Source: Nitrospinales bacterium
GTDB lineage: Bacteria; Nitrospinota; Nitrospinia; Nitrospinales; VA-1
Length of the DNA: 64,000 nucleotides
Reading direction: 5' to 3'
NCBI GenBank assembly: GCA_965262115.1
Contig: OZ253496.1
Coordinates: 1,856,001 to 1,920,000, forward strand
The translations under genes were made by a program, and so were the position numbers. This document shows positions 40,245 to 40,495 of the stretch, piece by piece; position 1 is the stretch's first letter, and every line of letters starts with the position of its first letter. The notes under the pieces were generated by a model. It saw nothing but the letters and a program-made list of their open reading frames with translations, was not told the DNA's origin and made no database searches.

Positions 40245-40460
40245 TTTGGTCTCCCAGCCTTGCCGATGTGGGCTCAGTGGCCCAGGCAACTGTTCGGGTT
40301 AATCAAAATAGGACACAACGATCTGCGCTTCGGGACGGGCTTAAAAGCCCAAGGGGTAAACGATCTATTGTGCCCTGAATCAAACCCTGTGAGCCTTGTG
40401 GAAAACACAAAACCGGCTTCCCACAGGGCTCACAGGTACAACTACTACAAATTCCCCTTA
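40245..40460 (-). ncRNA. IS110 bridge RNA (predicted; ends approximate)
   Basis: 5' hairpin 40386-40436; target loop with guides TTTACCCCT and CCCGAAG; donor loop with guides ACAGTTGCC and CAAG; each guide pair separated by a GGGC/GCCC stem. Confidence 0.85.
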
Positions 40461-40495
40461 TGAACAACATACAAGGGGTACTCGAAGGGTTCCCA

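Follow-up and report, generated by a model that had tools for sequence, protein, structure and literature searches.

A multi-copy IS110 element of a Nitrospinales bacterium in the head of a dispersed micro-repeat, with a predicted bridge RNA of the IS621 type

Results

The IS110 element and its recombinase

The left end described here belongs to a multi-copy IS110 element that sits in the hairpin head of a dispersed micro-repeat and that very probably works like IS621. The window, i.e. the whole stretch of 64,000 nucleotides that was analysed, covers positions 1,856,001-1,920,000 of a single 2.68-Mb contig. BLAST gave 24 matches of more than 1,100 nt to the window element in its own genome, and mapping of the ends gave 26 left and 26 right ends that combine to 23 complete copies; a false pairing at 2519436 (two left ends facing each other) was excluded from this count, and 2144619/2144782 were counted as one copy. 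The CT core is present at both ends of 22 of the 23 copies, with TT at one left end. A short core at each end, the lack of long terminal inverted repeats and a scarless empty site are traits of the IS110 family, and the empty sites found are contiguous, for example in seven IS3 copies with a 41-nt gap. The left end measures 233 nt, the right end extends less than 20 nt past the stop codon, and AAC/GTT flank the donor. The RNA-bearing long left end, the short right end and the 2-3-bp subterminal inverted repeat place the element in the IS110 group rather than the IS1111 group, as these groups are defined in the accessible text of PMC11208160.

An intact recombinase of 316 amino acids is encoded by 15 of the 23 complete copies, so the preliminary description was mistaken in assuming that the gene needs repair before a recombination assay. 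The window copy and its sisters (6-7 copies) have a 10-nt deletion in common, by which the frame is truncated after the catalytic serine; the window copy could therefore move only if one of the 15 intact copies supplied the protein. Two of the 23 copies represent a broken variant that is 88% identical to the main IS110. The intact protein scores 226 bits against NCBIfam NF033542 (IS110 RNA-guided transposases, cut-off 140) and combines a DEDD RuvC-like domain (PF01548) with a C-terminal serine domain (PF02371), as is typical of the family. Residues D11, E55, D97, D100 and S235 are found at the IS621 motif positions, for which the catalytic residues given in the accessible text of PMC11208158 were used as reference. 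With residues 1-238 of the window recombinase as query, the best match by sequence among solved structures is the ISCro4/IS622 bridge recombinase (PDB 9t56, E 1.6e-21), followed by IS621 (8wt6, E 9.2e-20); ISCro4/IS622 has other target guides than the present element.

Several copies show irregularities. The window copy has a private change at 40269 in the donor loop, where all other copies in the genome and at least 90% of the 65 homologues have G; this may impair the copy further. A tandem duplication of the initial 163 nt of the left end at 2144619-2144782, joined at an internal CT where the target-loop stem ends, looks like the product of a half-match. The facing left ends at 2519312 and 2519436 have the 5' hairpin in common, as if inverted inside it. 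Finally, an extra T follows the core in one of the junctions formed by the left end at 2384091 and the right end at 2282922 and is missing in the other; the two lie about 100 kb apart in inverted orientation and are possibly the reciprocal ends of a single insertion shifted by one base.

Table 1 Features of the element and its surroundings (window positions)
Feature	Position	Strand	Remarks
IS3-family host element	38891..41389	+	orfA from 38956, orfB from 40496; interrupted at the orfA/orfB junction by micro-repeat and IS110
Remainder of micro-repeat head, TCGGGGCATGAAG, then second 41-nt micro-repeat copy	39231..39284	-	
IS110-group element	39285..40475	-	1,191 nt including both CT cores; ends fixed by 23 complete copies with differing flanks
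CT cores of the IS110 element	40475-40474 and 39286-39285	-	
-35 box TTGACA in right end	39300..39305	-	spaced 17 nt from the -10 box once the ends are joined
IS110 recombinase gene	39302..40242	-	10-nt deletion near 39528; 264-aa product here, 316 aa when intact; PF01548, PF02371
Predicted bridge RNA, about 210 nt	40250..40460	-	from fold and 65-homologue alignment
Donor-binding loop	40251..40300	-	left donor guide ACAGTTGCC 40293-40285; right donor guide AT...CAAG 40267-40259; handshake G 40258
Target-binding loop	40310..40376	-	closing stem 40376-40367 with 40319-40310; inner GGGC/GCCC hairpin 40350-40337
Right target guide CCCGAAG	40328..40334	-	7 nt, core included; base 40330 faces the variable loop base of the repeat
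Left target guide TTTACCCCT	40352..40360	-	first two bases weakly used
5' stem-loop of left end	40386..40436	-	sequence variable among homologues
-10-like box TATGTT	40466..40471	-	complete only once the right end joins the left end
Left half of target, first five micro-repeat bases TACCC	40476..40480	-	
Empty micro-repeat head, TTTACCCCTTCGGG at 19557-19544	19544..19557	-	exact to both target guides, 14/14
Empty micro-repeat head, ATTACCCCTTCGGG at 6425-6412	6412..6425	-	13/14; 12/12 in the positions that matter

The target is the head of a micro-repeat

When the flanks of the copies are rejoined, 22 of the 23 insertion sites prove to be the 5' head of a dispersed repeat of 39-41 bp (E<0.01), and all are used in one orientation. 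A profile of this micro-repeat, which was seeded with the head/target motif, has 309 matches in the genome at E<0.01, and a shuffled genome gave one at E<=1. The rejoined target of the window copy, AGTACCC-CT-TCGGG, can be read directly at 40482-40474/39284-39280; it is a hairpin with the CT core at the loop. The 12-mer TACCCCTTCGGG occurs 28 times in the genome versus an expectation of 0.25, and every one of these 28 exact occurrences is a repeat head. The 23 copies have 16 distinct left and 17 distinct right flanks, most of them unique in the genome. Re-reading of the minus strand located all motifs quoted in the preliminary description, together with both empty targets, exactly where that description had placed them, and its expectation that other copies would lie in the same target was borne out by the rejoined sites.

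An address of 14 nt was considered and rejected, as the frequency of T in occupied and empty heads does not differ significantly at -7 (6/13 and 7/25, p = 0.30) or at -6 (8/13 and 13/25, p = 0.73). Since the outer two left-guide bases fall beyond the repeat and are not enriched, the working address comprises about 12 nt. The empty 14/14 site that had been predicted as a target is indeed present; it is no better supported than a 12/12 site. A pattern search of 120 genomes of the class, many of them incomplete and with collapsed repeats, gave repeat-flanked right ends in four and the exact left-guide context in four, all of genus g1.

The micro-repeat itself occurs in nested form. The same 41-nt variant follows position 20 of an IS110-bearing repeat at 736446, 121571, 1744402 and in the window (39231-39284) with differing outer flanks, which suggests self-nesting at a fixed position. 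Window positions 6326-6425 hold a micro-repeat array that ends 6 nt before a truncated IS3 left end (6431-6655).

Predicted bridge RNA and junction promoter

The 236-nt left end folds at -86.3 kcal/mol with z = -3.65, and none of 200 shuffled sequences folds as well. Both the minimum free energy (MFE) and the centroid structure contain the 5' hairpin as well as the stems agggcacaa/ttgtgtcct and GGGC/GCCC. The single-sequence MFE structure closes part of both guide loops on themselves; the open-loop layout thus rests on the alignment of homologues. In this layout the 5' stem-loop is followed by two internal loops with conserved closing stems, as in IS621, and the donor guides match the joined ends: the donor ACAGTTG-CT-TGTAT is read directly at 39293-39285/40473-40469, and the donor loop contains CAAG at 40262-40259 of the minus strand. 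The start of the RNA was placed 6-7 nt past the -10 box and its end at the donor-loop closing stem. A search of the window with Rfam at gathering thresholds gave no match.

Joining of the right to the left end would complete a promoter, predicted from the sequence, with the layout that the accessible text of PMC11208160 gives for IS621. TTGA precedes the -10 box at the 17-nt spacing in 80 of 90 distinct junctions; the ends were located via donor motifs, so conservation of the donor side and of the -10 box is partly built in. No end-to-end joint was found in the contigs of eight runs (X1, X2, X3, X7, X11, X4, X5, X8), contigs being prone to drop rare forms. No RNA run is listed among the public runs that contain this sequence; run X11, which we guess to be RNA, yielded three short contigs, which cover 39467-39674 only.

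Guides and stems covary across homologues

The homologue set comprised 9 relative, 80 metagenome and 80 genome loci (169 in total), of which 159 have a donor-guide anchor, 10 lack it and 19 have no parsable target loop. Outside the core, the right guide matches its own target at 246 of 270 positions among 54 distinct guides, compared with a permutation mean of 74.1 and a maximum of 112 (0 of 20,000 permutations reached the observed value). The left guide matches at 294 of 469 positions among 67 distinct guides (permutation mean 167.2), in a fixed-register test that retained some left guides whose parse was off by one base; from the outermost position to the core the matches are 13, 24, 44, 46, 53, 53 and 61 of 67. 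A wrong-arm control remained at chance (90 of 285 versus 86.9). The homologues are related, and this inflates the significance but not the position-by-position tracking of differing addresses. The recombinases are 52-75% identical, their guides differ, and the guides follow their own targets.

An alignment of 65 left ends, from which RNAalifold recovers the closing and inner stems, was used for the scaffold. Over 22 named stem pairs 97.1% of the cells are paired, compared with 37-49% in slid controls, and 18 pairs show two-sided change, the scaffold structure having been drawn from this same 65-sequence alignment. Two-sided changes affect 12 of 13 pairs of the target-loop closing stem and all three pairs of the inner hairpin; the donor-loop stems are nearly invariant and show conservation more than covariation. 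At position 3 of the left donor guide 111 A/A, 16 G/G and 7 A/G rows were counted, related rows included. The right donor guide AT...CAAG is present in 76 of 78 sequences and is therefore without covariation. A handshake base, as described in the accessible text of PMC11208158, is complementary in the donor loop to target position 7 in 79 of 90 cases, with a wobble pair in five more. In the homologue set there was no covariation between the base before the distal right donor guide and donor position 15, and no second handshake base was evident. Taken together, fold, stems and covariation are in agreement with the bridge RNA layout and the guide assignments of the preliminary description, and the guide and target bases do covary as it had anticipated.

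As regards a single origin of the guides aimed at the micro-repeat, the six elements with a TACCC guide form a group in an 18-sequence tree of the coding sequences, but its support of 91/94 is below the starred threshold. Many homologues across phyla (L005-L190) target other palindromic repeats such as GTCATT-CT-GAGCG, TACGC-CT-CATTC and TTCGCC-CT-GAGC; repeat targeting is thus general in this clade.

One guide base and four classes of repeat heads

The hypervariable loop base of the repeat comes directly after the CT core, and the 139 empty heads of this genome fall into 28 T, 39 G, 30 C and 42 A. The 26 right ends read TCGGGGC in 23 cases and GCGGGGC in two, and one is a base short. All 16 distinct right flanks of the main type belong to the T class (Fisher p = 1.8e-10), the class that is read by the main guide. 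The two copies of the 88%-identical variant (1834461, 1931072) have the guide CCCGCAG and sit at CT-GCGGG. They probably represent one event, because they have 226 nt of right flank in common; with the G class making up 39 of 139 empty heads, the agreement of guide and target is suggestive but not significant alone.

A second genome (G015) shows the same preference, with 17 T and 2 C at 19 right ends versus 7 T and 19 non-T among the empty heads (p = 4.9e-5). Its right ends are contig ends and the element body is unassembled; the guide was taken from element L031, whose guide reads T and whose end sequences are identical over the available sequence. The 17 left and 19 right junctions of this genome lie at different sites.

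Single-base selection in relatives is not clean. With a guide that reads C, G016 shows T, G, T, C and T at its five right ends; G013, whose guide also reads C, and L058, whose guide reads A, are both at a T site. G-T wobble would explain most of the mismatches of G016 and G013 but not that of L058, and wobbles (G-T or U-G) account for only 12 of the 41 mismatches found in 68 distinct guide/target pairs. G016 has few exact repeat heads (no T, two non-T). Three of its five right flanks are not repeat-like and none of its three left flanks starts with TACCC; the element inserts at guide-like sites outside the repeat, so that the repeat is not strictly required. The earlier claim that the element homes on the micro-repeat thus describes the outcome correctly, but what is addressed is a sequence of 12 nt. 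In a related strain (run X8 over window position 40330) the right-guide base reads C instead of T.

The IS3 host element and rearranged flanks

The micro-repeat interrupts the orfA/orfB junction in all 17 IS3 orfB copies of the genome, which are 99-100% identical, and no uninterrupted IS3 copy was found in this assembly. Translation of three IS110-free copies showed that the insertion shifts orfB to +1 with respect to orfA and that a slip to -1 at AAAAAAG leads to a stop ahead of orfB; the usual -1 frameshift thus cannot make OrfAB. IS3 may have spread to 17 copies with a helper that has since been lost, by conversion between copies or by a different form of recoding. A search of five genomes for an IS3 relative without the micro-repeat gave one 103-nt piece.

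Nine of the 23 IS110 copies have an IS3 left flank, and the flanks are shuffled. The 3-bp target duplications of IS3 pair between different copies (1391702 with 1657488, 1667310 with 1774196 and 603552 with 2682953, for example) and only 1 of 13 is self-matched, pointing to extensive rearrangement between repeats or to assembly mis-joins. Flanks were exchanged among the IS3-nested copies by homologous recombination, by half-match recombination as described in the accessible text of 10.64898/2026.08.31.748434, or by mis-assembly; some IS110 copies are therefore not independent insertions.

Discussion

We assume that the element follows the course known for IS621. Joining of its ends would generate the promoter TTGACA-17-TATGTT for a two-loop bridge RNA of about 210 nt. 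By base pairing, this RNA would bind the 12-nt target TACCC-CT-TCGGG as well as the junction of the element itself, ACAGTTG-CT-TGTAT. A tetramer of the RuvC-like/serine recombinase would then swap strands of donor and target at the CT. All of these steps, from circle formation and transcription of the RNA to RNA-DNA pairing and strand exchange, are proposed by analogy with IS621. The main guide, with A, selects the T class, the 88% variant, with C in its guide, sits in the G class, and G guides of relatives would accept C or, via wobble, T.

Guide pairing might be needed and the hairpin shape of the micro-repeat might in addition gate insertion, as in ISPpu10. Such a double requirement, which we consider unlikely, is compatible with the IS621-like model rather than exclusive of it. 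The target forms a hairpin whose loop contains the core, T-class heads are used even under guides that read C or A, and in ISPpu10 a target stem-loop adds specificity according to the accessible text of 10.64898/2026.03.19.712850. The same text, however, places that stem-loop 5' of the left target and not across the core, and the flanks of G016 speak against a strict need. Since all 28 exact 12-mers here are repeat heads, sequence and structure are inseparable in this genome. It is very improbable that the common target merely reflects a few founder insertions that were multiplied by IS3 transposition, recombination between repeats or mis-joins. All main-type copies with the 10-nt deletion (6-7) touch an IS3 half, the cross-paired IS3 duplications indicate flank exchange, and for the window copy itself this account probably applies. 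As a general explanation it is refuted by the 16 left and 17 right flanks, by the junctions of G015 at different sites and by guide-target covariation across phyla.

Recognition of the site by the recombinase protein alone, with the matches in the left end as relics of an earlier target capture, would agree with the fact that no RNA was observed in the run contigs, which cannot exclude RNA. The guides of recombinases of 52-75% identity nevertheless follow their targets position by position and the stems show compensatory change, and this reading is hardly credible. An equally slight chance is given to the idea that the IS110 system spreads the micro-repeat as well. IS110 and micro-repeat co-occur in genus g1, but the repeat junctions in IS3 have neither a CT core nor donor-like arms, and G013 has 337 exact heads and only one broken IS110 remnant.

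The IS621-like model agrees with what is described for IS621 of E. coli in the accessible text of PMC11208160 and PMC11208158: a DEDD and serine recombinase, a long left and a short right end, a CT core, a sigma70 promoter at the junction (predicted here), a 5' stem-loop, target and donor loops, 9-nt left guides, a discontinuous right donor guide, a handshake base and insertion into a dispersed palindromic repeat. According to the same text, IS621 differs in its 4-nt right target guide (7 nt here by nature), its REP target (here a 39-41-bp Nitrospina-type micro-repeat) and its 177-nt bridge RNA (about 210 nt predicted here). The accessible text of PMC11208160 already covers the layout, the 7-nt right guide, the junction promoter, repeat targeting and natural guide-target concordance for IS621 and its orthologues, including longer natural right guides in orthologues, and a 7-nt right guide engineered into IS621 improved specificity. 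ISPpu10 and ISPpu9 of Pseudomonas putida are likewise multi-copy IS110s whose insertions are limited to a single repeat family and whose targets form hairpins, as far as the accessible sources go; hairpin-bearing repeat targets of ISPpu10 are reported in the accessible text of 10.64898/2026.03.19.712850. There, the stem-loop lies 5' of the left target, whereas the CT core lies at the hairpin loop here. As with REP-targeting insertion sequences, a multi-copy intergenic palindrome serves as safe landing site; unlike REP targets, the present repeat is itself apparently mobile and has landed in an IS3 coding junction. The predicted mechanism matches IS621 throughout, and only the target appears to be new. 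Searches of the openly accessible literature on Nitrospina with IS110, on bridge-RNA wobble or retargeting and on Nitrospina repeats gave no description of element or target; subscription papers, ISfinder and supplements, which may list close orthologues, were outside their scope.

A small group of related elements includes guides for each of the four states (T, G, C and A) of the variable loop base. Speculatively, and with low probability, this IS110 lineage of one Nitrospina-type genus could be a dedicated parasite of a still-mobile 41-bp micro-element, in which a chase between guide and target has flipped a single guide base among four states. The micro-element would seed new landing sites, and saturated loop classes would favour retargeted guides; the variety at this base may reflect such a chase or drift. 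If true, the chase would provide a natural one-nucleotide record of bridge-RNA reprogramming and wobble tolerance.

The IS621-like model itself implies no new class and leaves the mechanism unchanged; it adds a candidate recombinase and a micro-repeat that IS110s exploit. The complete genome with 15 intact copies and 139 empty heads in four single-base classes, together with a sister element in which one guide base is changed and a natural 7-nt right guide, offers a natural test set for the rules of bridge RNAs.
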